Sequence record: SRR22947727_961 | Strand: one strand, 5' to 3' | DNA: 47,161 bases | Shown here: piece by piece, positions 28-43,141 of the stretch | How positions within the stretch are numbered: position 1 is the first letter of the stretch | Layout of the letters: every line of letters starts with the position of its first letter | The notes under the pieces: model-generated | Databases searched by the model: none | What the model saw: only the letters and a program-made list of their open reading frames with translations | Told to the model about the DNA's origin: nothing | Program-made: the position numbers and the translations under genes

Positions 28-111
28 CAAAGACGCGACAACCAGCAAAATCATGGGGTTGGAGACGGCTTCTCTATGAAAGAATTAGTTGTTCGTTGGA
101 AAGGAATCCCT

Positions 112-6570: not shown

Positions 6571-7220
6571 TGGCGTTGTTGGAACTGAAAGGGGTATCGC
6601 TACTCACAAGTGGTGTTGAGCGAGTCGCGTCAGTGACTGCATCGGTCGACGCGGGTCAGCTTGTAGCGATCGTCGGTCCCAATGGCTCAGGTAAGTCATC
6701 TCTGCTGGGTTTGATGGCTGGCCTGTTGACGCCCACGCGCGGATCCGTTCTGCTGGATGGTCGACTGGTGTCGAGTATGGGGCTGCGAGAACTTGCTACC
6801 CAGCGTGCGTGGCTGGGTCAATCAACGCCGGGCGCCGACAATTTCACTGTGGCAGAGGTTCTCAACTGGGGGAGGAGCTTCGCAGCCGGAGAAACCAGTG
6901 ATGCACAGAGCGCACTTGACGAGGTGGTGGAGGTGTTCGAGGTGCAGGATCTCATGACTGCACGGTTGCACCGGCTGTCCGGTGGCCAAAGGCAGCGAGT
7001 CCACCTTGCTCGCATCTGGCTACAGGGAGCACCGATCACGTTGTTGGATGAACCCGATTCGAGTCTTGATGAAACCGGTCGGTCTATGTTGCGCGGTGCC
7101 GTGCAGGAATGTGTGCGAGCGGGTCGGACAGTAGTTTTGGTGACGCACGATCGTGGCTGGGCAATGAGCGAAGCGGACCTCGTGTGGGAGGTTTTCGCGG
7201 GCCGAATCGTTGTCGGCTAG
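6570..7220 (+). CDS. hmuV: ABC ATP-binding protein (heme)
   Basis: Walker A GPNGSGKS, LSGGQRQR signature, LLDEP; TGATG coupling to permease. Confidence 0.85.
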   Translation: MALLELKGVSLLTSGVERVASVTASVDAGQLVAIVGPNGSGKSSLLGLMAGLLTPTRGSVLLDGRLVSSMGLRELATQRAWLGQSTPGADNFTVAEVLNWGRSFAAGETSDAQSALDEVVEVFEVQDLMTARLHRLSGGQRQRVHLARIWLQGAPITLLDEPDSSLDETGRSMLRGAVQECVRAGRTVVLVTHDRGWAMSEADLVWEVFAGRIVVG

Positions 7221-7229
7221 CGTTCAGGC

Positions 7230-7658
7230 ATGCTCAAAGGAATCGACCCGTTGCTCAGCGGCGACCTGTTGAAGATCTTGGACGATATGGGTCACGGCGA
7301 CCAACTTCTGCTCGTGGACCGCAATTACCCAGCCGCAGCGAGCGGGAAGTCGGTCATCCGCTTGGGAGAGGTCGGGGTCCTGCGTGCGGCTCGAGCGATC
7401 TTGAGTGTGTTGCCACTCGACTCGTTCATCGACCACTCGTTGGAGCGCATGGAGGTCGAGGACGATCCTGTGAAGACGACGTCCTTGCAGAACGACCTTC
7501 TGGCTCTTGCCAGTGAGAGCGAGGGGCGCAGCTTGGAGTACGGCGTCATTCCGCGCTTGGACTTCTATCAGCGGGCAGCTGCCGCCTGCGCGGTGGTGCA
7601 TACGTTGGAGGACCAGCCGTACGGCTGTTTCATTCTGCACAAGGGCGTTATCTTCTAG
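7230..7658 (+). CDS. RbsD/FucU family sugar mutarotase/pyranase
   Basis: MLKGIDPLL, MGHGDQLLLVDRNYP, RLDFY, YGCFILHKGV. Confidence 0.9.
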   Translation: MLKGIDPLLSGDLLKILDDMGHGDQLLLVDRNYPAAASGKSVIRLGEVGVLRAARAILSVLPLDSFIDHSLERMEVEDDPVKTTSLQNDLLALASESEGRSLEYGVIPRLDFYQRAAAACAVVHTLEDQPYGCFILHKGVIF

Positions 7659-7702
7659 CCAGTAGCGTGACCAAAGCCGACGATGAGGGAGATGGAGAAG
7701 AC

Positions 7703-7963
7703 ATGCCGGACGACGACATTGAGATCGGTGAAGACATCGAGGTAGAGGTTGTCCTCGACGAGAACGACAACGTGATCGGCACCGTTACCGACGATCTCGT
7801 CGTCGCCTCCGCCCCCGAAGGCTCACTCGTCGACGAGACGATCGACGTGCGAGATGCCGAGGGCAATCTCATCGTGGAAGATGAGACAGTCACGGTGTAC
7901 GACGCGGACTCACATGTGGTCGCGAAGAGCGAAACGATCACGCTGCCGCTCGACTCGGAGTAG
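7703..7963 (+). CDS. Small highly acidic hypothetical protein
   Basis: GGAG SD before ATG 7703 (alternative GTG 7667); GC-rich third positions; fills the gap between two real genes. Confidence 0.7.
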   Translation: MPDDDIEIGEDIEVEVVLDENDNVIGTVTDDLVVASAPEGSLVDETIDVRDAEGNLIVEDETVTVYDADSHVVAKSETITLPLDSE

Positions 7964-7967
7964 TCCC

Positions 7968-9170
7968 TTACCGGAAGCGAATATGTTCGGGTGAGAGATC
8001 CGCGAGCGTTCGAACGCCCAGGAGCGCCATCTGAGTCGTGACCTGTTCACGGAACAGCTCCACGACCTTTCGCACGCCCGATTGTCCTCCGGCCATCAGG
8101 CCGTAGAGGTGCGCGCGACCGACGAAGACACCGCGCGCTCCCAGTGCGACAGCCGCCAGCGCATCCGCGCCGTCGGTAATGCCACCGTCGAGGTACACCT
8201 CGCAGTCCTCGGGAACCGCTGCAACCACATCGGGGAGCACCTCCATCGGAACCGGCGCACGATCCAGTTGGCGTCCGCCGTGGTTGGACAAGACGATCGC
8301 GTCGACGCCGGCGGCCGACAATTCCTTGGATGTGGTGACGGACTGGACCCCCTTGACGACGAGTTTCCCGGGCCACCGGTCTCGAAGCCATGAGACGTCA
8401 TCGATCGTCAATGATGCATCGAAAACGCGGCTGAGCAGTTCCCCGACGGTGCCCTCCGAGTTCTTCAAGGACGCGAATTCCAACGGCTCATGCGTCAAGG
8501 CGTTCCACACCCACGAGGGATGCAGCGCCATGTCGAGGGCTGTGGACACGGTGAGTTTCGGAGGAACGGTCAGACCGTTGCGAATATCTCGACGACGAAT
8601 ACCACCGACGGGGGTGTCGATCGTGAGTTCGATCGTGCCGTAGCCGGCCGACTCGACCCTGTCGAGCAAGTCGTGGGTGATGGAACGGTCTTTGGATATG
8701 TACAACTGAAACCAATTGTTCCCCCCGGCAGCAACCCTTTGCAGGTCTTCCGGGCTGGTGGTGCCGAGTGTGGAGAGAACAAACGCGAGGTTGTTATCGC
8801 GTGCGACGGACGCGGTGGCTTCTTCCCCAGCGTGGTGCATCATGCGCGTGAATCCGGTGGGACCGAAACCGATCGGGAGATCCACCGGTGTACCCAGGAA
8901 CGTCGTCGAAGGGTCGACGTTCGAAACGTCGACCAGAGCATTGGGGCGGAATTCGACGGAACGGAAAAGTTGGCGCTGACGCAACAGAGCGAGTTCTTCG
9001 CCGGCGGAGCCGTCGGTGTAGTCGAACACCGCCCGTGGAGTGAACCTTTTCGCGATAGCGCGGATGTCGCTCAGGCTCGCCGCTCTCGCGAGTGCCCGTT
9101 CTCGCGAGTGCAGCTTAGGGGTTTCGAACTGCGCGAGTTCTCGGATTTCCGACCATCGGGGAATGCGCAC
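7968..9170 (-). CDS. FMN-dependent alpha-hydroxy-acid oxidase/dehydrogenase (LldD/glycolate oxidase family)
   Basis: FDYTDG, WFQLY, KLVVKG, SNHGGRQLD, LDGGI. Confidence 0.92.
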   Translation of the reverse strand: MRIPRWSEIRELAQFETPKLHSRERALARAASLSDIRAIAKRFTPRAVFDYTDGSAGEELALLRQRQLFRSVEFRPNALVDVSNVDPSTTFLGTPVDLPIGFGPTGFTRMMHHAGEEATASVARDNNLAFVLSTLGTTSPEDLQRVAAGGNNWFQLYISKDRSITHDLLDRVESAGYGTIELTIDTPVGGIRRRDIRNGLTVPPKLTVSTALDMALHPSWVWNALTHEPLEFASLKNSEGTVGELLSRVFDASLTIDDVSWLRDRWPGKLVVKGVQSVTTSKELSAAGVDAIVLSNHGGRQLDRAPVPMEVLPDVVAAVPEDCEVYLDGGITDGADALAAVALGARGVFVGRAHLYGLMAGGQSGVRKVVELFREQVTTQMALLGVRTLADLSPEHIRFR

Positions 9171-9209
9171 AGCCCTCAGGATAGCGGCTGACGGTTCACT
9201 GCCCGAGCG

Positions 9210-9965
9210 TCACCGCGTGCGCAGTAGCACGAACTGAAAGCGTCCTTCAACGAAGTATGTCTGGCTGTAGGCGACGGGGGTTCCGTCGCGGTCGAAGTGC
9301 ACTTGGTCAAGGAGGAGGTAGAGACCGTTGTCGGGTCGGTCGTCGCCCCAGCCGATGTCGGCCGAGTGGACGGCGTGCAACTCCGCGAGAGCCCTGACCG
9401 AGACCAAGCCGATCCGATCCATGGACGCGAACATGGAGCCGTCACCGAAACTGTTCTCGACTTCGGCCGTCATGTCACCCGCGGGCAGAACGTCGTACGA
9501 GTACGCCACGACTTCACCGTCGGCGGTGATGGCGCGCTGGAGTTCGAGAACGTCTGCACCACTGTCGAGGTGAAGTCGGGTTGATTCGTGGCGTGATCCG
9601 GGGCGGCGTGAGATCGAGTGATACTCCACACCTGGCTCGAGGCCCATTTCGGCAATCGTTTCGGTGATCGATCGAAGTTCCTGAACCCCGGACCGGATCT
9701 GGCCGCCAAAGTCGACGACAAACATGCCTGATCCGTGACGAATGTCGACCATGCCTTGGGATTCGAGGGCCTTGGCGGCAGTACGAATGGTCACGCGGGA
9801 AACACGGTAGGAGGCGGCTAGATCGGTCTCGCTGGGAAGCCGCGCTCCGGGAGGGAACTCGCCCCCGACGATTCTCCGGCGTAGGTCTTCGGCGATTCCT
9901 CGACCGAGAGGTATCCGCGAGGTTCCTCGCGTTGTATCCGTTCCTGTCACGTCGGTTCCACTCAC
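9210..9965 (-). CDS. GntR family regulator, HutC/UTRA subfamily
   Basis: RLPSETDLAASYRVSRVTIR wHTH, GSGMFV, C-terminal UTRA-like domain; divergent from mtnA. Confidence 0.9.
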   Translation of the reverse strand: MSGTDVTGTDTTRGTSRIPLGRGIAEDLRRRIVGGEFPPGARLPSETDLAASYRVSRVTIRTAAKALESQGMVDIRHGSGMFVVDFGGQIRSGVQELRSITETIAEMGLEPGVEYHSISRRPGSRHESTRLHLDSGADVLELQRAITADGEVVAYSYDVLPAGDMTAEVENSFGDGSMFASMDRIGLVSVRALAELHAVHSADIGWGDDRPDNGLYLLLDQVHFDRDGTPVAYSQTYFVEGRFQFVLLRTR

Positions 9966-9997
9966 AATTACCCCCTCGGTGCGCTACCCTAACCGCC

Positions 9998-10012
9998 ACT
10001 TGTAGGACAACT
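9998..10012 (+). promoter_or_regulatory. Putative GntR operator ACTTGTAGGACAACT
   Basis: Imperfect palindrome TTGT-N3-ACAA in the 64-bp gntR/mtnA spacer, just downstream of a TACCCT -10 candidate; near-identical copy at 16183-16197. Confidence 0.75.
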
Positions 10013-10029
10013 GCTCAGTTGGAGATCTT

Positions 10030-11067
10030 GTGGGTGACATTCGTGCGGTCCAGTGGTCGAACCGAGCCTTGGTCCTGATCGATCAGACCGAGCTGCCGAC
10101 GACGGAAACGTACGTCACGTGCAGCCGAGTGGACGATGTGGTCGACGCCATCATCCGGCTCGTCGTGCGTGGCGCCCCGGCGTTGGGTGCCGTGGGTGGG
10201 TACGGAGTGGCCGTCGCGATGTTGCAGGGTGAACGCGAGAACTGGGATGCCGCCCGTCTCGAATCGGAGATCATTCGGATCCGCGATGCACGACCGACAG
10301 CGGTCAACCTCGCCTGGGGTGTGGACCGTGTGCGCCCGATGGTCGCTGGTGGCGTCGAGGAAGTCCTGGCCGAAGCGGATCGGATCGCCGAAGAAGACGA
10401 AGCGGCCAATCGAGAACTGTCGCGACGTGGAGCGGATTGGATTCTGGCCAACACCACGACTCGACCGCTGCGCATCCTCACGCACTGCAATACGGGTTCT
10501 TTGGCGACGACCGCATGGGGGACAGCCTTGGGGATTATTCGAGAGTTGCACCTCCGAGGCGACGTCGAGCAGGTCTACGCCGATGAAACTCGTCCCCTGC
10601 TGCAGGGTTCGCGGCTGACGTCGTGGGAGTTGACTCAGGATCAGATCCCGCACGTCATCCAATCTGACGGCGCCGCCGCCTCGACGATTCTGCGGTCACT
10701 GGTGGACGTGGCGATCATCGGAGCGGATCGCATCGCACGGAACGGAGACACGGCGAACAAGATCGGATCGGTCTCCGTCGCCCTTGCCTGCCACGCGGCC
10801 GGCATCCCCTTCGTTGTTGCTGCTCCGTCGTCGACCGTCGACCTATCAACTGCTTCCGGTGACGAGATCGAAATCGAACTTCGTGATGGATCGGAAGTCA
10901 CGTCCATCGGGGGTGTCCAGGTCGCACCTGCCGGTGCTCAAGGATTCAACCCCGCCTTCGACGTCACCCCCGCTCGATTCATCTCCGCCATCGTTACCGA
11001 ACATGCTGTAGTGCAGCCGAGTGCTGAATCGGCGGTCGACGCTCTGGTGCATCGGGAGGCACAGTGA
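10030..11067 (+). CDS. mtnA: S-methyl-5-thioribose-1-phosphate isomerase
   Basis: IDQTELP, VRGAPA, RPTAVNL, LTHCNTGSLAT, ETRPLLQGSRLT, GADRIARNGDTANKIG, NPAFDVTP. Confidence 0.95.
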   Translation: MGDIRAVQWSNRALVLIDQTELPTTETYVTCSRVDDVVDAIIRLVVRGAPALGAVGGYGVAVAMLQGERENWDAARLESEIIRIRDARPTAVNLAWGVDRVRPMVAGGVEEVLAEADRIAEEDEAANRELSRRGADWILANTTTRPLRILTHCNTGSLATTAWGTALGIIRELHLRGDVEQVYADETRPLLQGSRLTSWELTQDQIPHVIQSDGAAASTILRSLVDVAIIGADRIARNGDTANKIGSVSVALACHAAGIPFVVAAPSSTVDLSTASGDEIEIELRDGSEVTSIGGVQVAPAGAQGFNPAFDVTPARFISAIVTEHAVVQPSAESAVDALVHREAQ

Positions 11068-13052
11068 ACGACCAACTGACCCCGCTTCGACAGCTCGTCG
11101 ACCGCTCGAATCGCATCGGTGATGACCCGTCACTCGTCGTGTACGGAGGGGGCAACACGTCGGCCAAGGGAAGGGTCGTGGATCATCTAGGGCGAGACCA
11201 GCAGGTGATGTGGGTCAAGGGCTCCGGTGCCGACATGCGCGGGTCGATCGAAACGGACTACCCGGCCCTACGTCTTGCGGAACTGACAGCACTGCGTGAT
11301 CGCGGCGAGATGACCGACGAAGAGATGACCGATCTTGTGACCCGGGCTCTGATGGATCCCGGCGCGCGGCGCCCCTCTATTGAGACCCTCCTGCACGCCT
11401 TCCTGCCGTTCACCCACATCGATCACGTGCACGCGGATGCCATCTGCGCGCTGACTAACCATGCTGAAGGGGCGCGCGTCACACGCGAGGCCCTGGGAGA
11501 CGGGTTCGCCTACGTGGACTGGATTCGTCCGGGCTTCGAGCTGAGCAAGATCGTCGGCGACTTGGCTCATTACGAGGGGGTCGTGCTCGCCCACCATGGC
11601 CTGGTGACGTGGGCCGAGGACTCGAACGAGTGCTTTCAGCGGACGATCGATGTGGTCGAGGCCGCACGTGCTTTCGTTGCGGAGCACTCCATCAACCCTG
11701 GGCCGCCACCTCGGCACGACGATATGCCGGTTGAGGAATTGGAAACTCTCCTGCTGCACTTGCGCGGAGTGCTCTCTCACACCGGTCACCGAGTGCTGCG
11801 TGTCGATGATCGACTGCGAGAAGTTGCCGACCATCCGCAACTCGACTCCATCGTCGCCGGCGGCGTCTCAAGCGCAGACCACATGTTGCGCATCAAGCCG
11901 CTGTCTGTTGCCCTGTCCGATACGGGCCCTGAGGAAGTAGCGCGGGCCGTCGAGGAATACACGAGCGCGTACGAGTCGTACGTGCAGCGCAACGCCGATT
12001 CGATGCCCGAGGGGTATTCGGGACATGACCCGATGCCTCGGGTTGCTCTCGTCCCCGGAGTCGGCGCGATCACTACCGGTCAGAACGCCTCCGATGCGAA
12101 AGTTGCGGCCGACATCGCGGTCCACACCCACGGTGTCGCGCGAACGGTTCTCGACTCCTTCGGTGAGCCGGAGCCGTTGAGTGACGTCGAGACGTTCCGC
12201 TTCGACTACTGGCCGATGGAGCTGTACAAACTGAGCCTGAAACCTGCACCGGCCGAGTTCGCGGGACGCGTCGCGATCGTTACCGGAGCAGCCGCGGGAA
12301 TAGGTCGGGGTATTGCGCTGTCTCTCGCGCGGTCGGGCTGCTCGCTGGTCCTGGCTGACCTCGATGCCTCGGGGCTCGACGAGGTCGCCTCGACGATCAT
12401 CGACGCCGGAGGACCCGAACCTGTCACCCTCACCGGAGATCAGTCAGATTCCAGCGTGGTGCGCTCTACTGTCGCAACGGCTATCCGACACTTCGGTGGA
12501 CTCGACGGCGTGGTCATGAACGCCGGGATCGGTGTGACCGGCTCGCTGGCTGAACTCACGGACGAGAAGTGGCGTGCGGCCCTCGACATCAACCTGACCA
12601 GCGCCTTCGCGTTGACCCGCGAGTCCATGCGCGCGCTCCAGGTGCAAGGAATCGGTGGTTCCTTGGTGTTCGTGGCAAGCAAGAACTCCTTCAGTCCGGG
12701 AGCAAACTTCGGTGCCTACTCGGTGAGCAAAGCGGGAATGGTCCAGTTGATGCGTATCGCTGCGCTGGAAGGCGGGAAGTCGGGCATCCGGTCGAACGCG
12801 GTAAATCCTGATGCAGTCTTCGACAATTCACGCTTGTGGGATAGCGGTCTGCGAGAAGAGCGTGCGGCTGCCCATGGGATCGCCCCGGACCAACTGGAAG
12901 ATTTCTACGCGTCGAGGAACATTCTGAAACGTCGGGTGACGACCGCCGATGTCGCGGCATCGGTGGAGTTTCTTCTCTCGGACCGTTCATCTCGAACAAC
13001 AGGATCGGTGATGACCGTCGACGGTGGAGTGGCCGGAGCGTTCCCGCGCTAG
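11064..13052 (+). CDS. Bifunctional class II aldolase / short-chain dehydrogenase (RhaEW/YuxG-like)
   Basis: GGGNTSAK, VKGSG, PSIETLLH...HVH metal site; C-terminal SDR TGAAAGIG, NAG, YSVSK; GTGA overlap with mtnA. Confidence 0.9.
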   Translation: MNDQLTPLRQLVDRSNRIGDDPSLVVYGGGNTSAKGRVVDHLGRDQQVMWVKGSGADMRGSIETDYPALRLAELTALRDRGEMTDEEMTDLVTRALMDPGARRPSIETLLHAFLPFTHIDHVHADAICALTNHAEGARVTREALGDGFAYVDWIRPGFELSKIVGDLAHYEGVVLAHHGLVTWAEDSNECFQRTIDVVEAARAFVAEHSINPGPPPRHDDMPVEELETLLLHLRGVLSHTGHRVLRVDDRLREVADHPQLDSIVAGGVSSADHMLRIKPLSVALSDTGPEEVARAVEEYTSAYESYVQRNADSMPEGYSGHDPMPRVALVPGVGAITTGQNASDAKVAADIAVHTHGVARTVLDSFGEPEPLSDVETFRFDYWPMELYKLSLKPAPAEFAGRVAIVTGAAAGIGRGIALSLARSGCSLVLADLDASGLDEVASTIIDAGGPEPVTLTGDQSDSSVVRSTVATAIRHFGGLDGVVMNAGIGVTGSLAELTDEKWRAALDINLTSAFALTRESMRALQVQGIGGSLVFVASKNSFSPGANFGAYSVSKAGMVQLMRIAALEGGKSGIRSNAVNPDAVFDNSRLWDSGLREERAAAHGIAPDQLEDFYASRNILKRRVTTADVAASVEFLLSDRSSRTTGSVMTVDGGVAGAFPR

Positions 13053-13084
13053 ATCAACGAGGCCGACAAGTTTGGCTAAACCGG

Positions 13085-14185
13085 CTAAACCTTCTGAACC
13101 GACTGTACGAGTCGGCGAGCGTTCTCGGCCAGGTCGCCTCGATGAAGCGCTCCACCGACCAGGAGTGCGACGTCGATGCCGTAGAAGTCGGTGAGTTCGT
13201 CGATTCGATCCAGCGTCATGCCGCCACCGGGACTCAGCCAGGCAGACGCAAGCGAGCCAAGTGGAGCCAGGCACGCCGCCTGAATCGCCGACAATTCCTC
13301 CGGCGAGAAACTGAAACGCCCCCCATGGTTGGGGAAGATCGAGATATCGGCCCCCGCCAATCGCATCAGTGTCCCGAACATGATCCCGGGGTCGATTCCC
13401 TGGTCTGGATTCACCACATTGGATCCCAGGAACGAAGGGTGAGCCATGATGGGAAGAGCGAGGTCGTCGTCATCGGCAAGAGAGCGCATCGCGTCGAAAC
13501 CGCAGATACCGGGCAGTACCAGCAAGGCTCCGGCCCCTGCTTCCTTCGCAAAAAGGGCCGCGTCCCGCAGAGAGTCTGCTGGGACATTCAGGCTCGGCAT
13601 GTATGCAGACGGGTGGCCGGTCTCAGACGCTGCCTCGTTCACCGCCTGGGCGATGGCCGTGACGCGATCGCGCCACGTGGCCCAGGGTTGATCGGCAAGT
13701 CCGTGATCGTCCTTGATGATGTCGAATCCGGCGGTTGCGATGGTCCGAGCCATGGTCGCCAGCATCTGCGGGCTGGACCCCATCGGCTTCACCGCGGTAC
13801 ACACCAGGGGGCGATCGGAAGCGCCGAAGAGAGATCGAAGTCCCGGAATCCCGAAACGGGGTCCACGGAAATCATTGAGGATCGAGTCGGGTAAGCGCAG
13901 GTCGCGGACCCGGACCCCGGGGAACAGCGAGACGTTGCCCCACAACAAGTTGAGCACTTGCACTAGGCCACCGCCGGCCACGCCGGGGTCGTATCCGATG
14001 GTTATGTCGCCACCGTCATCGTTGAGTACGTGACCGACCACGCCCTGTTGAATCCACTCCGGTGCGAGCTCGAAGGGGAACTCGATGGTCTGCTCGACGC
14101 GGATAGCCTCGGCGATTGCGCGGGGGTCCTCGGCGGTGATCCGGTAGTCGATTTCGATGAGGTCGCCGGATGCGGCTGCGGTCAC
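13085..14185 (-). CDS. RuBisCO-like protein (form IV), R. rubrum methylthioribulose-1-phosphate 1,3-isomerase type
   Basis: VEQTIEFP, GNVSL, GPRFGIPGLR, CTAVKPMG, IKDDHGLADQ, AHPS, GADISIFPNHGGRF, PGGGM. KDDH (not KDDE) and loss of the second Lys of KPK argue against a carboxylase. Confidence 0.88.
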   Translation of the reverse strand: MTAAASGDLIEIDYRITAEDPRAIAEAIRVEQTIEFPFELAPEWIQQGVVGHVLNDDGGDITIGYDPGVAGGGLVQVLNLLWGNVSLFPGVRVRDLRLPDSILNDFRGPRFGIPGLRSLFGASDRPLVCTAVKPMGSSPQMLATMARTIATAGFDIIKDDHGLADQPWATWRDRVTAIAQAVNEAASETGHPSAYMPSLNVPADSLRDAALFAKEAGAGALLVLPGICGFDAMRSLADDDDLALPIMAHPSFLGSNVVNPDQGIDPGIMFGTLMRLAGADISIFPNHGGRFSFSPEELSAIQAACLAPLGSLASAWLSPGGGMTLDRIDELTDFYGIDVALLVGGALHRGDLAENARRLVQSVQKV

Positions 14186-15228
14186 AGCGCTTCGACCTTC
14201 GCGTTGCTGTGCGTGGCGGCGACGCGCACCTTGGTGAGATCCGAAGCAGAGACCCCGAGAGGTCGATCGAGCACGTTCTCGGCCAGTCGCACCAGCGACA
14301 GGGCATCGAGGTGGTACTCGGCGAGCAGATAAGGCTGAGACGCTCCATGCGCGTACGTATCTCTCAGGCCCATTCGGTGCAAAGGCGTGGCGATCGAGTT
14401 CTCCGCCATGACCTCCGCCACGGCCGACCCGAGGCCGCCGGTGGTCAAGTGGTTCTCCATGGTGATGACCCCTGCAGTCGCCGATCGCAGCGCAGTGACG
14501 ATGGTCGGATCGGTGAAGGGCTTCAGGGTGGACACATGAAGATGGGACACCGACACGCCTGCTGAGCGGAGCGCGGGAATGGCGCGCAGGGCTTCCTCGG
14601 TCAGGATTCCGGAGGTGAGTACGACGAGTTCGGCCGGCGCGGCGAGAGCGTCTCCGCCGAGACTGAGGACCCGCGCCCGGTTGAACTGCATCGGTTCGTC
14701 TGCCGGGAACAATCGCGGAACCTCACCGCGGAGCATGCGAACGTATACGGGCCCGTCCACGGCGTGGGCGACGTCCACGACGGATTCGACTTCGGTCGCA
14801 TCGCCGGTTTCCACGATCGTCATGTTGGGAATCGTGCGCATGACCGCCACATCGTCGATGGCTTGGTGGGTGACGCCCCCGGGAGTGGTGATGCCGGGAA
14901 GGAAGCCCACAAGTCGAACCTTGAGGTTGGGGTAGGCCACGGACATCTGCAGTTGATCCAGCGGGCGGCGGTAGAGGAAGACCGCGAACGTGTGAAGCCA
15001 GGGCTCGAAGCCTTCCCGCGCCAGACCCGCGGCGAAACTGAGCATGTTCTGCTCCGCCATTCCCATGGAGAAGAATCGGTCGGGGTAGGTGTCTCGCCAC
15101 TTGCCCACCTCGCAGGAGTTGGTCAAGTCTGCGCTGAGAACGAGAACCTCGGGTTTATCGGCGGACCAGTTGATGAAGTTGTCCACGTGGGGACGGGTCA
15201 CGATCTCGATGTTCGAACGTGTGCTCAT
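14182..15228 (-). CDS. Split transketolase-like enzyme, C-terminal (pyrimidine-binding) subunit
   Basis: SADL, MGMAEQNM, THQAIDD, GPVYVRM, TMENH, GGLGSAVAE; GTGA overlap with RLP. Confidence 0.9.
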   Translation of the reverse strand: MSTRSNIEIVTRPHVDNFINWSADKPEVLVLSADLTNSCEVGKWRDTYPDRFFSMGMAEQNMLSFAAGLAREGFEPWLHTFAVFLYRRPLDQLQMSVAYPNLKVRLVGFLPGITTPGGVTHQAIDDVAVMRTIPNMTIVETGDATEVESVVDVAHAVDGPVYVRMLRGEVPRLFPADEPMQFNRARVLSLGGDALAAPAELVVLTSGILTEEALRAIPALRSAGVSVSHLHVSTLKPFTDPTIVTALRSATAGVITMENHLTTGGLGSAVAEVMAENSIATPLHRMGLRDTYAHGASQPYLLAEYHLDALSLVRLAENVLDRPLGVSASDLTKVRVAATHSNAKVEAL

Positions 15229-16160
15229 GCCTGACCCCCCGACGACGAGACCGATTCGGTGGAGACGAGAGCTTCGTAGAACTCCTCATACTTCGCACGC
15301 TCGTCGTGACCGGTGAAACGCAGGTAGTGCAGCACCGGTCGGCGCTCGTTCATCAGCGGCACGCCGCGAACGGGGTCGGTGTAGGCCAGAACAAAGTGCG
15401 GGCGCCCGGTGGGCCGTTCCAAGGCGTGGGTGAGGGCGGCGATGTTGTGTCCGTCGACCGAATCGGCGCTCGCGCCGAACGCCTTGATCTTCGTGGCCAA
15501 AGGTTCGATGTTCATGACCGAGTCCATGGGGCCGTCGCACTGGGCTCTGTTGACGTCGACGACGACGCGAACCGTATCCAATCCGTAGAACGCGAGTGCC
15601 TGGATCGCCTCCCACGTCTGGCCTTCTTGGAACTCACCGTCGCTCATGAAAACAAAGGTGCGCCCCGTCTCACCCTTCAACCTCCGGCCGAGGGCGATTC
15701 CCCCCGCGGTGGACAGTGCTTGCGCGAGGGAACCGGTCGTTGTTTCGAAACCGGGCGAGTGCTCGGCTCCGATCATTTCGACGGTCGATCCGTCCTTGTT
15801 GAATTGATCGAGAGCGGCCTCGTCCAGGCGACGGGCCTCGATGAGTGCTGCGTAGACCACCAGGGCGTAGTGCGCAGGGGAGATGATGAGTCGGTCGAGG
15901 TCGGGACCGGGCTCCCCGTGAAAGATGCCGCCGGAGATCCGCGGCGCCTCGGGTCCTGGTACGGCGTCGAAGTCCGCCGGGTGCAAGGGCCCGTCGGTGG
16001 AAGCCAAGTTCAGGACGTTCCCGTAGAGCGAGGCGAGTAGTTCTGCCGACGAGCACGCCTGGCTGAGATAGCCGCCGTTGTTGGCGAGTACGTGTGCGAG
16101 GACCCGCTGGCGGATCCCTTGGGCGATCTGTTCGGCTGTTGGGGACGCGGAGAAAGCCAT
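15225..16160 (-). CDS. Split transketolase-like enzyme, N-terminal (ThDP-binding) subunit
   Basis: DRLIISPAH, TTGSLAQ, SDGEFQEGQTWEA...N ThDP motif, VDGHN; ATGA overlap with C-terminal subunit; TAGCCT-N6-ATG leaderless start. Confidence 0.9.
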   Translation of the reverse strand: MAFSASPTAEQIAQGIRQRVLAHVLANNGGYLSQACSSAELLASLYGNVLNLASTDGPLHPADFDAVPGPEAPRISGGIFHGEPGPDLDRLIISPAHYALVVYAALIEARRLDEAALDQFNKDGSTVEMIGAEHSPGFETTTGSLAQALSTAGGIALGRRLKGETGRTFVFMSDGEFQEGQTWEAIQALAFYGLDTVRVVVDVNRAQCDGPMDSVMNIEPLATKIKAFGASADSVDGHNIAALTHALERPTGRPHFVLAYTDPVRGVPLMNERRPVLHYLRFTGHDERAKYEEFYEALVSTESVSSSGGQA

Positions 16161-16182
16161 AGCGCAAGGCTACAAAGTCATA

Positions 16183-16197
16183 AGTCGTCCTACAAGT
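16183..16197 (-). promoter_or_regulatory. Second putative GntR operator ACTTGTAGGACGACT
   Basis: Plus strand AGTCGTCCTACAAGT; 14/15 identical to 9998-10012; lies just upstream of the TAGCCT -10 of the transketolase-RLP operon. Confidence 0.75.
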
Positions 16198-16258
16198 TTT
16201 CCCCTAGAACTCCTCAGGACCGTGCCCAGTGACGAGCGATCTGTGGCACGGTTCCCAC

Positions 16259-17692
16259 GTGACTGATCAATCCCTCGTAGCCGGTGTAGACACCTCAACC
16301 CAATCGGTGAAGGTGGTGGTCCGGGAGGCCGACACCGGAGCGTGGGTTCGCGAGGGGCGTGCATCGCATCCGGACGGCACCGAAGTCGCCCCTGAGGAAT
16401 GGTGGACGGCTTTCGGTGCGGCCTGTTCGGGTGGACTGCTCGACGGTGTTTCGGCCATCTCGATCGCCGGGCAGCAGCACGGAATGGTCGCCTTGGACGA
16501 GAGTGGTGATGTTGTTCGGCCCGCCTTGTTGTGGAACGACACTCGGTCGGCTCCCGACGCGAGCGACCTGGTGACCGAACTGGGTGGCCCGGCCATGTGG
16601 GCCGAGGCGGTAGGCAGCGTCCCTGTTGCGGCCTTCACGGTGAGCAAAGTGCGATGGATGGCTCGAAACGAGCCGGACAACGCCGAACGAACGTCGACCA
16701 TCATGCTCCCGCACGACTACCTGACATGGATGCTCGCCGATCAGCCCCATGCGGCAACCACCGACCGGGGTGATGCCAGTGGCACGGGTTACTGGTCCCC
16801 AATCGAGGGCGAGTACCGGCGCGATCTGATGCAGCTGGCTCTCGGAAAAGACGTGCAACTCCCGCGCGTTGCCGGGCCGGATGAGACCGTTGGGGAGGTG
16901 GGTGGTCGCGCCCGGTCTTTCCTCGGAATCAACGGATCGTCACCGATCGCCATCGGTCCAGGAACGGGCGACAACATGGGCGCAGCGTTCGCTCTGGAAA
17001 TCGCTCCCGGCGACGTCGTGGTGTCCCTAGGAACATCAGGTACCGCGTTCGCGGGATCGAGTCAACCGACCAAAGACCCCACCGGGCTGGTCGCGGGCTT
17101 TGCTGATGCCTCCGGTGTCTTCCTACCTCTGGTGTGCACACTGAACGCCGCGCGCATCCTCACCAGCACCGCTGAACTCCTCGGCGTCGACATGGATTCC
17201 TTCGCTGCGTTGGCGCTCGCCGCTGAACCCGGAGCCAGCGGACTCGTCATGCTCCCGTACTTCGATGGGGAACGAACCCCCAATCTGCCCGGTGCTCGCG
17301 GATCTCTTCACGGCATCAGTCGGGAGAATCTGACACCGCAGAATCTCGCGCGGGCGGCTATCGAGGGAATGCTCGGCGGACTTGCCGACGCGGTCGACGC
17401 GCTCGTCGATGTGGGTGTTCAGCCGAGCCGGGTACTCGTAGTTGGAGGTGCTGCGTCGAATCCGGCGGTGGCAGATATCGCAGCCACGCTCGTGGGCGTC
17501 CCGGTGCAGATACCTCCTGCTGGTGAGTACGTTGCCGACGGCGCGGCCCGGCAGGCGGCATGGATTCTGCGCGGCGGGGAACAACCCGCATGGAGCGACG
17601 TACGGCCCGGCGAGACGGTCTCTCGTGATCCACAACCGGCCGCCCAGGTGCGCGAGCAGTATCGGCAGGCGCGGGAGGCCCTCTACGCGTGA
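16259..17692 (+). CDS. xylB: FGGY carbohydrate kinase, xylulokinase-like
   Basis: GVDTSTQSVK, GQQHG, LLWNDTR, DRGDASGT, GTGDN, SLGTSG, GERTP. Confidence 0.85.
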   Translation: MTDQSLVAGVDTSTQSVKVVVREADTGAWVREGRASHPDGTEVAPEEWWTAFGAACSGGLLDGVSAISIAGQQHGMVALDESGDVVRPALLWNDTRSAPDASDLVTELGGPAMWAEAVGSVPVAAFTVSKVRWMARNEPDNAERTSTIMLPHDYLTWMLADQPHAATTDRGDASGTGYWSPIEGEYRRDLMQLALGKDVQLPRVAGPDETVGEVGGRARSFLGINGSSPIAIGPGTGDNMGAAFALEIAPGDVVVSLGTSGTAFAGSSQPTKDPTGLVAGFADASGVFLPLVCTLNAARILTSTAELLGVDMDSFAALALAAEPGASGLVMLPYFDGERTPNLPGARGSLHGISRENLTPQNLARAAIEGMLGGLADAVDALVDVGVQPSRVLVVGGAASNPAVADIAATLVGVPVQIPPAGEYVADGAARQAAWILRGGEQPAWSDVRPGETVSRDPQPAAQVREQYRQAREALYA

Positions 17693-17810
17693 TGCGGGCG
17701 CCAGGCCGGCACGCGTGATGTCGTCGAAGCGCTTGGTTTCGAAGCGCCCGCAATCAGGGCCCAGGTTGGGAATTTGGGTGAAATGACACCCTCGACGGTT
17801 GAAAGTTCAG

Positions 17811-17910
17811 CAGAATGATCCCGCCGCCTCCCCCGGCGGCGATCGGTATGCACGGCATACCCCAGGAACCCGCGCGTCAACCCCCCCAGCCGCGCGGGTT
17901 CCGTCTGTTG
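17811..17910 (+). ncRNA. Probable 6C RNA
   Basis: Intergenic; two GC-rich hairpins with C-run loops (CCGCCG-CCTCCCC-CGGCGG at 17821-17839; GGAACCCGCGCG-..CCCCCCC..-CGCGCGGGTTCC at 17865-17902), the defining architecture of the actinobacterial 6C motif. Confidence 0.7.
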
Positions 17911-17916
17911 TGTGGG

Positions 17917-19464
17917 TCAGGCGCGGGACTCGAACATTCCCAGCAGAGCGGCGACGCCCAGCACCGATCGAGGTGCGTAGGCGGCCCGCCACAGTCCGCC
18001 GTGGTTCGCTCCCTCGGTGAAGAGATTCATCGGGTTGGACAACGGGGTTGCGGGATGGGCGCTCGACGTCGGGTTGCGAAGGTCATGCACCAACATTGCG
18101 GCCATCAGCGTCGTCGACGTGGACGGATCGAATACCTCGACCCCGAAGCGATCGGCCCCGGCGTACGCCGCCGCGAGCGCTCGGTTGCGAACAACGGAGC
18201 GGGTTCGGGTCGCGGGCGCGAGATTCAAGGAGACAGGGACGCCGTCGGCGCGAGCGGCGAGAGCTCGCCACCGTTGAATCCGCTTCGCGAGTATGTAGTT
18301 AGGGCCTTGCTGGGGGATGATCGAATCGTTCAGGCCGACCTGTTCACCGCTCGGTGTCGAATAGATCTTCGGGTAGTTCGGCTCGAACTGCCTCGCAATG
18401 CGAAGAGGCGCCTGGAGGAGACCGCCGAGCCCGCGGCCTTGCCAGCGTCGACGGCTCTCTTCAACGCACTCGGCAGGAACGACGAACACATCAGTGGGGG
18501 TCGCCAAATAGGCCAGCGTGATGTCGTCTCGGTGTTGCAGCAGGGTGGTGACGATCGCATCGCTCGCCCCGGAGATCTGTACGTGTTGGGCGCCGTCCGC
18601 GTAGGCGTAGGTGCCAAGCACGAACGGCTGATTAATCTCTGCCAGCCATGTCCGCACCTCTGGCACAGCGGTGACGAGATCGACGCCTGCTGCGCTGCAG
18701 ATCGTCGCATCGTCGTCTGGGTGCACGTCACCCTCGACGACGAAAGGTGGCTGGCCCTGGGCGTCGAGCGGGATGGGTACGCGGAGGCTGCCGGCTGTGC
18801 TCCGTGTAATGGCTGTCAGTCGTTCCCAGATCCCAGGGCGGGGAAGATCGATGGCGTGAACCCGGGCGCCCCAGCGCAACAAGGAGCGAGTCGGTGCCAT
18901 TTCTGCACCGGCGCCGAGCAGGGCGATGTCGACGTCTCGTAAGTCCATCCAGTCTGGGTTGTCCAGAACGAGGTGTATCGCATCGGCAAACGATGGTTCG
19001 GCTATTCCGTTGGCGACCCATGAGTCGACCTGTCGGCGGAGTTCACTTCCGAAAAGCCGGCCGCCCTTGTAGGGGACAGAAATCTCTTCCTCGGGGGTTG
19101 CTCGCCCGCGCACCGTGACCGAAGCCAAGCCTCGTTCGCTGAATCTCTCCATTGCCTCGGGTAGGGACATTTCTTCCTTGTCGCGCCGAAAGGTGAAGCG
19201 CTGCTGTGCCGATTCGAGGCCATGCCGGGAAATGGAGACCGCGTTATCCGGCGACTGCGCAGCGGCGAGAACTATGTCTCGCAAGGGAGCGATGTACCCC
19301 TTGCGCCAGTCGCGGGTGTGTTCGATGCGAGCCGCGATTGCCGGATCGACGGCGCGGATGGAGTCGGCGAAAACCGCTCGACCGGTGGCGGATGTGCTGC
19401 GTCGGCCGTCCCCCCCGAGGGGAAAACACACTCCCTCTGCATCAGGGGAACGTGGATTCGGCAC
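17917..19464 (-). CDS. Hypothetical protein with Rossmann-like motif
   Basis: 515-aa ORF with GC-rich third positions; LLGAGAEMAP, QGPNYILAKR, NHGGLWR; TATTCT-N6-GTG start. Confidence 0.75.
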   Translation of the reverse strand: MPNPRSPDAEGVCFPLGGDGRRSTSATGRAVFADSIRAVDPAIAARIEHTRDWRKGYIAPLRDIVLAAAQSPDNAVSISRHGLESAQQRFTFRRDKEEMSLPEAMERFSERGLASVTVRGRATPEEEISVPYKGGRLFGSELRRQVDSWVANGIAEPSFADAIHLVLDNPDWMDLRDVDIALLGAGAEMAPTRSLLRWGARVHAIDLPRPGIWERLTAITRSTAGSLRVPIPLDAQGQPPFVVEGDVHPDDDATICSAAGVDLVTAVPEVRTWLAEINQPFVLGTYAYADGAQHVQISGASDAIVTTLLQHRDDITLAYLATPTDVFVVPAECVEESRRRWQGRGLGGLLQAPLRIARQFEPNYPKIYSTPSGEQVGLNDSIIPQQGPNYILAKRIQRWRALAARADGVPVSLNLAPATRTRSVVRNRALAAAYAGADRFGVEVFDPSTSTTLMAAMLVHDLRNPTSSAHPATPLSNPMNLFTEGANHGGLWRAAYAPRSVLGVAALLGMFESRA

Positions 19465-19477
19465 GAGGTCAGAATAC

Positions 19478-20449
19478 TCAGCGCTGCTGCCGAGAACGTT
19501 CCGCTAAGACCACCCCGGTCAGGATGAGTGCACCACCGATGAGTTGAACGATGCCCAAGGACTCCGAGAGAACGAGCCACGCGATAAGAATCGCTAGCAG
19601 CGGTTCGGTCAATCCGATGACGGACGCTTGGGAAGCGCGGAGATGGCGCATCGATGCCACGACCAGCCAGAACGGAACCACCGTTCCCATCACGATCATC
19701 CATAAGGACAGGCCCCACAGCGGCTGATCGCCGAGAGGTGCTCCGAGATCTTCCAAACTGGTACCGGACAAGTCGGACCAGGGAAAGTTCCACCACGGTT
19801 GAACGACGACCCAGAACAACGATGCGAAGCCGAAACCCCACATGGTCAATGACACGGGGTCGCGCGGTTCCGGTAGTCGCATCTGTCGATCGGTAATCAA
19901 GTAGTGGGCGCTGAGCGCGAGTGCCGCTCCGAGAGCGGCCAACAGGCCGATCACCTCGAAAGAGAAGCCGCGCCACACCTCCGCCACGAGTGCGAGTCCT
20001 ACAAGCGCGACGGTCAAAGCCAGCCACACGGTCCGTCGCGTTGGCTCTCGAAGAGCGAAGCGGAACCACAGCGCCACGAAGACAGGTGCAGTGAATTCGA
20101 TCAACAGCGCGACGCCGACGGGCAAGTAACGCAGTGCAACGAAGAACAGGTACTGCGTCATTGCGACGCCGAGAATTCCGTAGGCGATCAGGAACGGCCA
20201 CTCTGAGCGATGGATCACCAGGCGCCGTGGGCGAGAGATGACGATGAAGGCGAGAAGAATCACGAAAGCCCCGGTCACGCGCAGTTGGGAAAGGCGAGCA
20301 GCGTCGATGCCGCTGAGTAGGATGGCTTTCGATACGGAGCCGTTGATGGCGAATGTCAACGCTCCGAGAAGGTAGAGGGTGTAGCCCACCCACAAAGAAC
20401 GGCGAGCTGCCAATGGAACTCCGGGGAGTGGCTCGACGAGATCGCTCAT
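19478..20449 (-). CDS. EamA/DMT family transporter
   Basis: About ten hydrophobic helices; LPVGVALLIEFTAPV, LTEPLLA, IGGALILTGV; start uncertain (ATG of MSDLVEP chosen). Confidence 0.88.
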   Translation of the reverse strand: MSDLVEPLPGVPLAARRSLWVGYTLYLLGALTFAINGSVSKAILLSGIDAARLSQLRVTGAFVILLAFIVISRPRRLVIHRSEWPFLIAYGILGVAMTQYLFFVALRYLPVGVALLIEFTAPVFVALWFRFALREPTRRTVWLALTVALVGLALVAEVWRGFSFEVIGLLAALGAALALSAHYLITDRQMRLPEPRDPVSLTMWGFGFASLFWVVVQPWWNFPWSDLSGTSLEDLGAPLGDQPLWGLSLWMIVMGTVVPFWLVVASMRHLRASQASVIGLTEPLLAILIAWLVLSESLGIVQLIGGALILTGVVLAERSRQQR

Positions 20450-20584
20450 GCTAGGCGGCAACCGCACGAGATGGCGGCGTCGACGCAGGTCGGATGGGCC
20501 CTTTGCATGGCACCGAAGCCTAGGGATCGGTCATCGACTGACACGACGGCCGTCACGTATGACGGGCTGCCTTAAAGCGTCGAA

Positions 20585-43131: not shown

Positions 43132-43141
43132 TCAGCTCGTC

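Follow-up and report, generated by a model that had tools for sequence, protein, structure and literature searches.

5'-Methylthioadenosine (MTA), like 5'-deoxyadenosine, is a by-product that S-adenosylmethionine chemistry cannot avoid, and many cells excrete the sugars of both. In the MTA-isoprenoid shunt of Rhodospirillum rubrum and Rhodopseudomonas palustris, as set out in sections of two reports, a RuBisCO-like protein (RLP) of the DeepYkr kind (Rru_A1998/RPA2169) isomerises 5-methylthioribulose-1-phosphate (MTRu-1-P) to 1-methylthioxylulose-5-phosphate (MTXu-5-P), from which a cupin, the MTXu-5-P sulfurylase Rru_A2000/RPA2170, then gives methanethiol together with 1-deoxy-D-xylulose-5-phosphate (DXP) (PMC4958253, PMC5893883). 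The cupin that ends this route in DXP requires glutathione according to one of these sections (PMC5893883), and Actinobacteria are described in an excerpt of a further paper as using mycothiol instead of glutathione (PMC6302742). R. palustris runs its RLP shunt alongside an aldolase-based dihydroxyacetone phosphate (DHAP) shunt, which provides a precedent for branched use of MTRu-1-P (PMC5893883, in part). Here, we describe a gene cluster at positions 9210-16197 of a 47,161-nucleotide stretch of DNA from sequence record SRR22947727_961 (the window, which denotes the whole analysed stretch), in which an RLP gene is coupled to the genes of a split transketolase (TK)-like enzyme dependent on thiamine diphosphate (ThDP). 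We propose, with a probability of roughly 0.6, that this locus is a salvage regulon for 5-methylthioribose (MTR) and MTA, with a DHAP-shunt branch and a new branch leading from the RLP to the ThDP enzyme, which would give glyceraldehyde-3-phosphate (G3P) and possibly release methanethiol.

Organisation of the gene cluster

The cluster consists of two convergent operons separated by a gap of 32 bp (13053-13084). The plus-strand operon comprises mtnA (10030-11067), encoding 5-methylthioribose-1-phosphate isomerase (TIGR00512, 402.8 bits against a cut-off of 279), and a gene for a 662-aa fusion of a class II aldolase and a short-chain dehydrogenase/reductase (SDR), a RhaEW-like paralogue (11064-13052; Pfam Aldolase_II at residues 20-203 and adh_short_C2 at residues 408-656). 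The minus-strand operon comprises, in the order of reading, tktN (15225-16160; Pfam Transketolase_N), tktC (14182-15228; Pfam Transket_pyr and Transketolase_C) and the RLP gene (13085-14185), where TktN is the PP-domain subunit of the TK-like ThDP enzyme and TktC the subunit with the Pyr and C-terminal domains. Overlaps of 4 bp occur at three junctions, namely MtnA/aldolase-SDR, TktN/TktC and TktC/RLP. A gene for a GntR/HutC-type regulator with a UTRA effector domain (9210-9965, minus strand; Pfam GntR 68 bits, UTRA 58 bits) diverges from mtnA, and exact copies of an 11-mer candidate operator, ACTTGTAGGAC, are located in the GntR-mtnA spacer (9998-10008, plus strand) and in the spacer between tktN and an FGGY kinase gene (16187-16197, minus strand).

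All open reading frames (ORFs) were found where an earlier reading of this DNA (the original prediction) had placed them, and its description of two translationally coupled, convergent operons with a divergent GntR/UTRA gene and a shared operator stands. The same reading had claimed that the window contains neither a cupin nor mtnB, mtnC or mtnD, and the results agree: tblastn revealed no Rru_A2000-like cupin in the window, neither the MtnC nor the MtnD family surfaced in a Pfam scan of 49 window ORFs, and the aldolase half of the fusion (N-terminal 399 aa) reached only 21 bits against the MtnB cut-off of 226.

The RLP and its relatives

The RLP is a short form of 366 aa (relatives are 359-379 aa in length) with the RuBisCO large catalytic domain (RuBisCO_large, PF00016, 69 bits), and this domain scored far below the cut-offs of every curated RLP or RuBisCO model. 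The mtnW models were among these, with 144 against 513.6 bits for TIGR03332 and 196 against 409 bits for the best NCBIfam match, also an MtnW model. The best solved relative was 3qfw (378 aa, E 1.3e-61, 212 bits), listed as an RLP structure and which we take to be RLP1 of R. palustris; MtnW structures scored 125-156 bits, Photo RLPs 122-124 and the OiaX model 82. The motif IKDDHGLADQ is common to the window RLP and 3qfw, and KDDE is found instead in the MtnW enolases 4nas and 2oek; K158, D159, D160 and H161 were invariant in the RLP alignment.

An exhaustive profile search yielded 1787 RLP relatives. Extensions of more than 80 aa were present in 35 of the 150 best representatives of 50%-identity clusters, and Cupin_2 (Pfam) was detected in seven of ten extended representatives scanned. 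By blastp to those seven, a C-terminal cupin is fused to the RLP in 27 of the 150 nearest representatives, and the cupin part of one such fusion (P0142) matches PDB 3jzv (Rru_A2000) over its whole length with an E value of 2.8e-22. As the fused cupins match Rru_A2000, the window RLP belongs to a family with members joined in one polypeptide to the enzyme that acts next in the MTA-isoprenoid shunt. In three other relatives (P0162, P0138 and P0146) an N-terminal extension stands in place of the cupin, that of P0162 being an inositol-monophosphatase-family domain and those of P0138 (272 aa) and P0146 (207 aa) being without a Pfam family. A relative from Thermotoga profunda is annotated generically as 'RuBisCO large subunit C-terminal-like', and the RLP of G010 (C3:1142311-1143388) lies in two frames, covering residues 6-244 and 243-364, owing either to a frameshift or to faulty assembly.

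A tree of 170 RLPs computed with FastTree, which contained no named R. rubrum or R. palustris sequences and in which 84 of 167 inner branches were unsupported, was used solely for one 30-row clade with a support of 100. This clade includes the window RLP and comprises 18 TK-linked RLPs, 11 TK-less RLPs and one other. Among 81 positions that are invariant in TK-linked RLPs, 47 are common to the cupin-fused RLPs (including K133, K158, D159, D160, H249 and R290) and nine differ in the latter; at these nine the TK-less RLPs have the residue of the TK-linked group. On account of the shared clade and the shared invariant residues, the RLP seems to perform the same job in both settings while the enzyme after it changes. 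The window RLP is predicted to be a 5-methylthioribulose-1-phosphate 1,3-isomerase. [quoted passage not shown]

A transketolase-like enzyme at the place of the cupin

Linkage of the RLP to its neighbours was assessed in two sets of loci. The RLP-centred set consisted of the best 80 of at least 578 loci in species-representative genomes, 72 of which had at least 1100 nt upstream, and the TK-centred set of the best 80 of 513 metagenome loci (TktC identity 67-100%), 71 of which had at least 600 nt downstream. For 50 of the 72 RLP-centred loci, the gene lying directly upstream on the RLP strand was tktC, and the RLP was located directly downstream of TktC in all 71 TK-centred loci. A further 16 of the 72 are of a Planktophila type, in which the aldolase-SDR gene is directly upstream of the RLP and no TK is present. 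Four loci (L058, L059, L062 and L066) carry a Rru_A2000-like cupin within approximately 2 kb, all of them without TK, while the TK is downstream of the RLP in one locus (L081) and neither TK nor cupin was found in another (L064). No cupin was found in any TK-bearing RLP locus, nor in the 80 TK-centred metagenome loci.

This RLP occurs in only three of 301 sampled genomes of the class, which is too sparse for a co-occurrence test, and co-occurrence was therefore derived from a genus-level sample together with the locus sets. Among 31 relatives of the nearest genome (G001, 89% complete), RLP and TktC were both present in 16 and neither was found in 14; one relative had the RLP only (at a contig edge) and none had the TK only. 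Two complete Nanopelagicaceae genomes of the Planktophila type (G002 and G003) contain the RLP and no close TK (best match 35% identity), and both possess a cupin (E of about 1e-22) that is divergent from, and 110 bp away from, an O-acetylhomoserine sulfhydrylase gene. These pairs are located at G002:C1:482239-483962 and G003:C1:515917-517640, and the arrangement fits a hand-over of methanethiol in cupin-type organisms. Of the TK-type genomes, G001 and G005 yielded no match to the cupin, and the match in G004 was weak. TK and cupin exclude each other, and a ThDP enzyme at the place of the cupin, in combination with this mutual exclusion, is what one would see if the RLP product were passed to the TK. 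The original prediction had coupled the RLP to a ThDP enzyme instead of a cupin, which is borne out here, and the genes that it had grouped co-occur widely across loci and genomes.

In a Planktophila-type locus (L032:11034-14826), the RLP is followed by genes for a membrane protein resembling ArAE/FUSC, a CsoR-like repressor, a rhodanese, and a protein that combines a rhodanese domain with similarity to CoA-disulfide reductase, so that a reactive-sulfur context adjoins the RLP in loci of this type.

Active site of the ThDP enzyme

The best solved relatives of TktN and TktC were 6yak and 6yaj, respectively, which belong to a split TK, and the C-terminal subunit also matched the DXP synthase (DXS) structure 8a29. 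All TK and DXS NCBIfam models remained far under their cut-offs: the best transketolase model, NF004559, gave 197 and 145 bits against 488, and the dxs model TIGR00204 gave 145 against 466 bits, the window enzyme being split into two chains. The phosphate-binding set of transketolase is formed by Arg358, Ser385, His461 and Arg520.

To the Escherichia coli TktA and Dxs sequences, 28 N-subunits and 43 C-subunits from the loci were aligned. TktN conserves His66, Asp155 and Asn185 (Mg/ThDP motif, in which GDG reads SDG), and TktC conserves Arg358, Ser385, the cofactor-activating Glu411, His473 and Arg520, so that part of the phosphate-binding set (Arg358, Ser385 and Arg520) appears to be retained. 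The donor-pocket histidines of standard transketolase are not all kept: His26 is replaced by Tyr in 27 of 27 aligned sequences and His100 by Met in 27 of 28 (Phe in Dxs), while His473 is preserved. In addition, His461 is replaced by Phe and Asp469 by Gly in 41 of 41 aligned sequences, within the invariant segment VGFLPG[IV]xTPGGVTHQ. HMMER alignments to 6yak and 6yaj gave the same substitutions. His261 fell into a gap in the large alignment and was the conserved His of an LHY motif in a small one. The second split TK of G001 and G002, which served as a control, keeps His26, His66, His100 and His261; segment 461-473 of this second enzyme does not align, and the control was used for the N-subunit only.

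According to parts of one study, His100 and His473 of transketolase hydrogen-bond the hydroxymethyl group of the donor, hydrophobic replacements of His100 are needed for pyruvate to be accepted, and His26 and Asp469 are among nine residues within 5 Å of C1-C2 of the donor (10.1101/719906); DXS is stated in a section of another to have Phe at the His100 position in all cases (PMC7661550). The changes observed in the pocket would suit a donor with an apolar C1 group bulkier than OH, such as CH2-S-CH3.

MtnA, the aldolase-SDR fusion and substrate supply

Among the 24 loci whose flanks extended for at least 8 kb on either side, MtnA was present within 10 kb of the RLP in 22, TktC in 21 and the aldolase-SDR in 13, the latter being a frequent second branch. 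The recurrent neighbours include an ABC transporter of the ribose type, with its ATPase in 29 loci, its permease in 16 and its binding protein in 15, regulators of the GntR or SorC families, and a kinase in 17 loci; two of these kinases were scored and both exceeded the MtnK equivalog cut-off (389 and 475 against 275 bits). Three arrangements illustrate how these genes are combined. L046 carries, on one strand, MtnA, aldolase-SDR, binding protein, ATPase, permease, MtnK, a SnoaL-like protein, TktN, TktC and RLP. Chloroflexus sp. MS-G (L075) has a single-strand operon of binding protein, ATPase, permease, MtnK, MtnA, TktN, TktC and RLP, with no aldolase. Finally, Georgenia sp. H159 contains an MTA-phosphorylase-family gene, a TK-RLP operon, MtnA and MtnK within 19 kb, the first of these at a distance of 8 kb from the cluster. 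Based on these arrangements, the conserved core consists of uptake or phosphorolysis followed by MtnA, RLP and TK. The entry enzyme, which the original prediction had noted as missing from the window, is represented in relatives by MtnK with the ABC transporter or by the MTA-phosphorylase-family gene. O-acetylhomoserine sulfhydrylase scored above its cut-off in five of five genomes, and acireductone dioxygenase (ARD, MtnD) was found in none of the five.

The aldolase-SDR fusion scored 564.2 bits with TIGR02632 (RhaD_aldol-ADH), which is 3.5 bits under the cut-off of 567.75, and its N-terminal 399 aa match bifunctional aldolase/SDR models only. RhaEW, as characterised in the part of the source concerned, cleaves rhamnulose-1-phosphate and oxidises lactaldehyde with NAD+, yielding DHAP and an acid (PMC3870299). 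The fusion of the window is predicted to be a 5-methylthio/5-deoxy-ribulose-1-phosphate aldolase and aldehyde oxidoreductase.

A SnoaL-like (NTF2-fold) protein of 119-137 aa is encoded in L020, L045, L046, L048, L050, L056, L057 and L061, where it adjoins MtnK, and in seven of the 80 TK-centred metagenome loci; its gene is located between MtnK and TktN in L046 (7705-8079) and between RLP and MtnK in L050. An accessory function is conceivable for it, as an isomerase or epimerase acting for instance on a 1-methylthioribulose-5-phosphate side product. Eight loci (L011, L043, L051, L055, L063, L072, L074 and L078) have a DeoC/LacD-family (class I) aldolase of approximately 363-390 aa beside the TK or the aldolase-SDR, which may be an alternative shunt aldolase.

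A candidate regulon

The sequence ACTTGTAGGAC, allowing up to one mismatch, occurs three times in the window against 0.31 matches expected, and none of 100 shuffles reached three. The divergent promoter of the GntR gene itself contains a palindrome, TTGT-AGG-ACAA (10000-10010), and with its winged helix, UTRA domain and this palindromic candidate operator at its own promoter the regulator has the features expected of the HutC/GntR family. The 9-mer core of the operator is present in 21 of 85 loci, and comparison of core positions with gene positions placed it a short way upstream of TktN in 13 loci (L003-L008, L010, L026, L050, L056, L057, L061 and L063) and either between MtnA and GntR or closely upstream of MtnA in L004-L007, L010, L026, L039, L050, L053, L057, L069 and L077. 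GntR homologues adjoin MtnA in L004-L006, L010, L026, L039, L050, L053 and L057. In several loci with the conserved core, the RLP is only 49-76% identical to that of the window, and since the core is kept before both operons at this distance, mtnA>aldolase-SDR and tktN>tktC>RLP look like a single regulon under one putative GntR-type regulator. The third copy of the operator, with one mismatch, is located inside an EamA-transporter gene (copy at 19996-20006, minus strand; gene at 19478-20467) and may be a chance match or an internal site; L004 has a copy of the 9-mer at a similar place (4180-4188).

Neighbouring genes

Upstream of the cluster are genes for a FucU/RbsD mutarotase (7230-7658, plus strand; Pfam), a 98-aa ORF without a Pfam family (7667-7963, plus strand) and an LldD-like FMN-dependent 2-hydroxyacid dehydrogenase (7968-9170, minus strand; Pfam FMN_dh 411 bits), the last of which lies 39 bp downstream of the GntR gene. 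These three are conserved in the closest relatives only (L004, L005 and L010), and a role of the LldD-like dehydrogenase in the pathway is uncertain.

On the other side, a XylB-like FGGY kinase (16229-17692, plus strand; TIGR01312, 400 bits against a cut-off of 380) diverges from tktN. It is conserved in L003-L008 and L010 and in 11 of the 80 TK-centred metagenome loci, and, sharing the second operator region with tktN, it is a probable member of the regulon in this sublineage. Neither this kinase nor the LldD-like gene figured in the original prediction. A xylulokinase-type member would fit a xylulose-type intermediate, for instance by re-phosphorylating 1-methylthio- or 1-deoxy-xylulose; XylB of E. 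coli reportedly phosphorylates 1-deoxyxylulose.

Two long, overlapping ORFs on opposite strands, neither with a Pfam family, occupy window positions 17815-19464. The minus-strand ORF of 515 aa (17917-19464) is probably the real gene of the two, since tblastn found matches of 77-99% identity in L003-L007 and L010. A homocysteine S-methyltransferase gene (76-996, plus strand) lies 8 kb upstream of the cluster. With respect to the origin of the DNA, L002, L003 and L004, whose RLPs are 92-98% identical to that of the window, are near-identical DNA deposited as Actinomycetota, Micrococcales and Rubrivirga sp., so that at least one of these bin labels must be mistaken; WhiB in relatives, GlnR and the genes of the methylerythritol phosphate (MEP) pathway fit Actinomycetota.

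Proposed pathway and alternative explanations

In the pathway that we propose, 5-methylthioribose-1-phosphate, arising from MTA or from imported methylthioribose, would be the input, and MtnA would convert it to MTRu-1-P, from which two branches would depart. In the first, the aldolase-SDR would cleave MTRu-1-P to DHAP and 2-(methylthio)acetaldehyde (acetaldehyde in the case of the deoxy analogue), and the SDR on the same protein would oxidise or reduce the aldehyde, constituting a DHAP shunt with its own aldehyde enzyme. In the second, the DeepYkr-type RLP would form 1-methylthio-D-xylulose-5-phosphate, thereby turning a D-erythro ketose-1-phosphate, which a TK cannot use, into a D-threo 2-ketose-5-phosphate, which a TK can use. 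The split TK-like enzyme would then attack this compound with ThDP and cleave it between C2 and C3, freeing G3P. Comparative evidence favours the branched route of the original prediction, with RLP-to-ThDP cleavage and an aldolase branch that has its own aldehyde oxidoreductase, although we infer every substrate and product of the TK as well as the direction of the SDR reaction. The cluster probably also handles the 5-deoxyribose analogue.

The 1-hydroxy-2-(methylthio)ethyl-ThDP carbanion left after cleavage would carry a good leaving group in the beta position, and its most likely fate is loss of methanethiolate, which would give acetyl-ThDP in a phosphoketolase-like manner. Phosphoketolase loses water, and sulfoacetaldehyde acetyltransferase loses sulfite, from analogous ThDP intermediates. 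On this basis TktNC may tentatively be viewed as a 1-methylthio-xylulose-5-phosphate 'thio-phosphoketolase', which would yield G3P, expel methanethiol and deliver the acetyl unit as acetate or acetyl phosphate, although we would put the odds of this particular activity at less than even. O-acetylhomoserine sulfhydrylase could carry the methanethiol to methionine. With such an elimination the RLP-TK branch would not be redundant with the aldolase, as it would free the methylthio group as the cupin does, and without glutathione.

Several observations weigh against the proposed regulon and its new branch. The counts of 50 of 72 and 71 of 71 loci derive from best-scoring relatives, many of them from a few aquatic actinobacterial lineages, and are thus not independent. 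The RLP does not need the TK, as the 16 Planktophila-type loci have the one without the other. The two branches would be redundant if each merely yielded a triose phosphate and the same aldehyde, and the elimination step that removes this redundancy is one that we infer purely. Release of G3P does not predict the changes Asp469Gly and His461Phe, and DXS, which binds G3P, keeps the Asp (Asp427). MtnK was not found in the nearest genome, at its completeness of 89%, and several features of the window hint at other sugars: the kinase resembles XylB and the dehydrogenase LldD, a FucU/RbsD gene is present, and the score of the fusion comes close to RhaEW.

A reading that retains the same steps regards the TK as an ordinary lyase or transferase, which would split MTXu-5-P into G3P and 2-(methylthio)acetaldehyde for the SDR, or transfer the methylthio-ketol unit to an aldose, with no release of sulfur. 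The TK-like scaffold with all cofactor residues kept and the aldehyde-active SDR in the cluster speak for it, as does the finding that neither acetate kinase nor phosphotransacetylase is among the annotated recurrent neighbour families; however, it would duplicate the aldolase branch, leave the methylthio release by the cupin unreplaced, and sit poorly with the TK-RLP operons of Chloroflexus sp. MS-G and L072-L080, which have no adjacent close aldolase-SDR. We consider it unlikely, if a serious contender. It is quite unlikely that the main input is instead 5-deoxyribose or 5'-deoxyadenosine, with the RLP making DXP and the TK acting as a DXP lyase (DXS backwards, to G3P and acetaldehyde), or with DXP passing to the MEP pathway. 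The hydrophobic residue at the His100 position, as in DXS, the matches of the C-terminal subunit to the DXS model TIGR00204 (145 bits) and to 8a29, and a XylB-like regulon kinase that fits a xylulose-type intermediate are consistent with it, and DrdK-type kinases accept both MTR and 5-deoxyribose according to a section of PMC6079011. Against this, the displaced cupin is needed for the methylthio compound only, DXP requiring none; Asp469Gly gives more room than in DXS; the cluster kinases exceed the MtnK equivalog cut-off; and Dxs is present in 17 of 19 genus genomes, which indicates no special need for DXP. The suggestion in the original prediction that the RLP could feed DXP to the MEP pathway draws no strength from ispD (43001-43849) and ispF (43846-44325), which lie 27 kb away in a housekeeping block, and it cannot be general, since the genome of Chloroflexus sp. 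MS-G, with its MtnK-MtnA-TktNC-RLP cluster, gave no Dxs or Dxr match. The TK-like enzyme was also considered as a DXP source because no Dxs exceeded the cut-off in G001, and this was rejected in view of the presence of Dxs in the 17 of 19 genus genomes and in 29 of the 31 relatives. The Dxr match of G001 (C12:3199-4392) contains one in-frame TGA.

The remaining explanations depart further from the proposed order of reactions or from its substrates. We regard it as very improbable that the TK acts before the RLP or in a synthetic direction, whereby a two-carbon donor and a phosphorylated aldehyde would be joined and RLP and MtnA would lead to a 5-substituted ribose-1-phosphate: the gene order tktN-tktC-RLP, the reversibility in principle of all three enzyme types and DXS-like features that fit carboligation would allow this, whereas the uptake ABC transporter and the ATP-dependent C1 kinase point inwards, the characterised relative of the aldolase-dehydrogenase fusion serves catabolism, and the cupin exclusivity fits a downstream role. 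Slimmer still are the prospects of a different sugar phosphate, either ribose-1-phosphate, converted via ribulose-1-phosphate to xylulose-5-phosphate for a dedicated TK, with glycolaldehyde oxidised via glycolate to glyoxylate by the LldD-like enzyme, or a 6-deoxy sugar metabolised via lactaldehyde and lactate to pyruvate. FucU/RbsD, the XylB-like kinase, the LldD-like gene behind the GntR gene and the near-RhaEW fusion fall into place here, and lldD occurs in RhaEW regulons of Actinomycetales in the portion of PMC3870299 that deals with them; yet these neighbours are conserved in the closest relatives only, the conserved core elsewhere is MtnK, MtnA, TK and RLP, a normal xylulose-5-phosphate donor would keep His100 and His26, and neither RhaA nor RhaB is present. 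Finally, a variant of classical methionine salvage, in which the Aldolase_II domain would be the MtnB dehydratase and the RLP the MtnW enolase, has almost no likelihood. The combination of MtnA, an Aldolase_II-fold protein and an RLP does mirror MtnA-MtnB-MtnW of Bacillus, and in NCBIfam the RLP finds its best match, at 196 bits, in an MtnW model, but the MtnW models are far under their cut-offs (196/409 and 144/514 bits), the motif is KDDH and not KDDE, the aldolase half has 21 bits against the MtnB cut-off of 226, ARD is found in none of the five genomes, and relatives of the RLP are fused to a cupin of the Rru_A2000 type.

Distribution and significance

Relatives of the cluster are encoded on at least 578 genome stretches and at least 513 metagenome stretches, and window positions 7000-18000 are present in marine, estuary and sponge metagenome runs of 11 studies. 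Carriers available in culture include Georgenia sp. H159, Ornithinimicrobium cavernae and Chloroflexus sp. MS-G. Assembled contigs of four RNA-library runs from four studies also cover 7000-18000, one of them as a single 14-kb contig; these were not counted as evidence of transcription because DNA carry-over is possible. In one metatranscriptome assembly, the contig ends at 9966/9995 and 13036/13206 fall near the limits of the operons, which is a weak hint at transcription units.

A full-text literature search retrieved no paper in which a transketolase is connected to an RLP in the metabolism of MTA, MTR or 5-deoxyribose; supplements and most subscription journals were outside its coverage, and an earlier mention is thus possible. 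The word 'transketolase' is absent from the text of PMC5893883, PMC6079011, PMC6302742 and PMC13454268, and in PMC6389311 it refers to the Calvin cycle. The statement of the original prediction that no characterised pathway has this combination of genes is in line with the literature searched, which holds no description of one.

A ThDP enzyme obligately tied to an RLP would be a new outlet for the sugar chemistry of MTA and 5'-deoxyadenosine, and would widen the range of functional settings in which the RuBisCO superfamily occurs and perhaps that of ThDP reaction types. If the enzyme is indeed a 'thio-phosphoketolase', the result would be an oxygen-free route, free of a thiol cofactor, that recovers sulfur and all five carbons of methylthioribose. 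In the widespread Actinomycetota of marine and fresh waters, and in Chloroflexota, this route would take over from the glutathione-dependent cupin step. Since the cluster is common and occurs in marine, estuary and sponge runs, it may matter for the scavenging of reduced sulfur and carbon by plankton.

Comparison with known systems

The cluster shares MtnA and an RLP of the same kind with the MTA-isoprenoid shunt of R. rubrum and R. palustris (MtnP, MtnA, RLP and cupin), and its genomes likewise possess O-acetylhomoserine sulfhydrylase. It differs in lacking the cupin, at whose place an obligately linked, split TK-like ThDP enzyme is found, and as this enzyme rather than the cupin follows the RLP, the product of the new branch cannot be assumed to be DXP. 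Among the enolases of methionine salvage, MtnW/YkrW of Bacillus (2,3-diketo-5-methylthiopentyl-1-phosphate enolase) has the same RuBisCO-like fold and a context with MtnA and MtnK, whereas the window RLP is under the MtnW cut-offs, carries KDDH and was found without MtnB, MtnX or MtnD partners.

The DHAP shunt and 5-deoxyribose disposal (MtnK or MtnP, MtnA and Ald2; DrdK-DrdI-DrdA) likewise combine a kinase or phosphorylase with an isomerase and with a class II aldolase whose substrate is a 5-substituted ribulose-1-phosphate, and relatives of the window carry MtnK within the cluster. In contrast to that system, the aldolase of the window is a RhaE-type enzyme joined to an SDR, and there is an additional RLP-TK branch; the parts of PMC6079011 concerned make no mention of the fusion or of a TK. 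RhaEW of Chloroflexus aurantiacus and Bacillus subtilis has the same two-domain architecture, but the window fusion scores under the RhaEW-type cut-off and is translationally coupled to mtnA and not to rhaA or rhaB, and by virtue of this coupling its substrate is expected to be the pentulose-1-phosphate made by MtnA.

The ThDP enzyme resembles the split transketolase of Carboxydothermus hydrogenoformans (6yak/6yaj) in its division into PP and Pyr+C subunits and in keeping the Mg/ThDP motif, Glu411, His66, His473, Arg358, Ser385 and Arg520, while the family of the window differs from transketolase and DXP synthase by His26Tyr, His100Met (Phe in DXS), His461Phe and Asp469Gly. DXS is a single chain in which Asp427 is kept; the window enzyme is split, with Gly at that position and a hydrophobic Met at the His100 position. 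To phosphoketolase, the likeness would lie in the elimination chemistry, which the enzyme of this window may carry out on a methylthio instead of a hydroxyl group.

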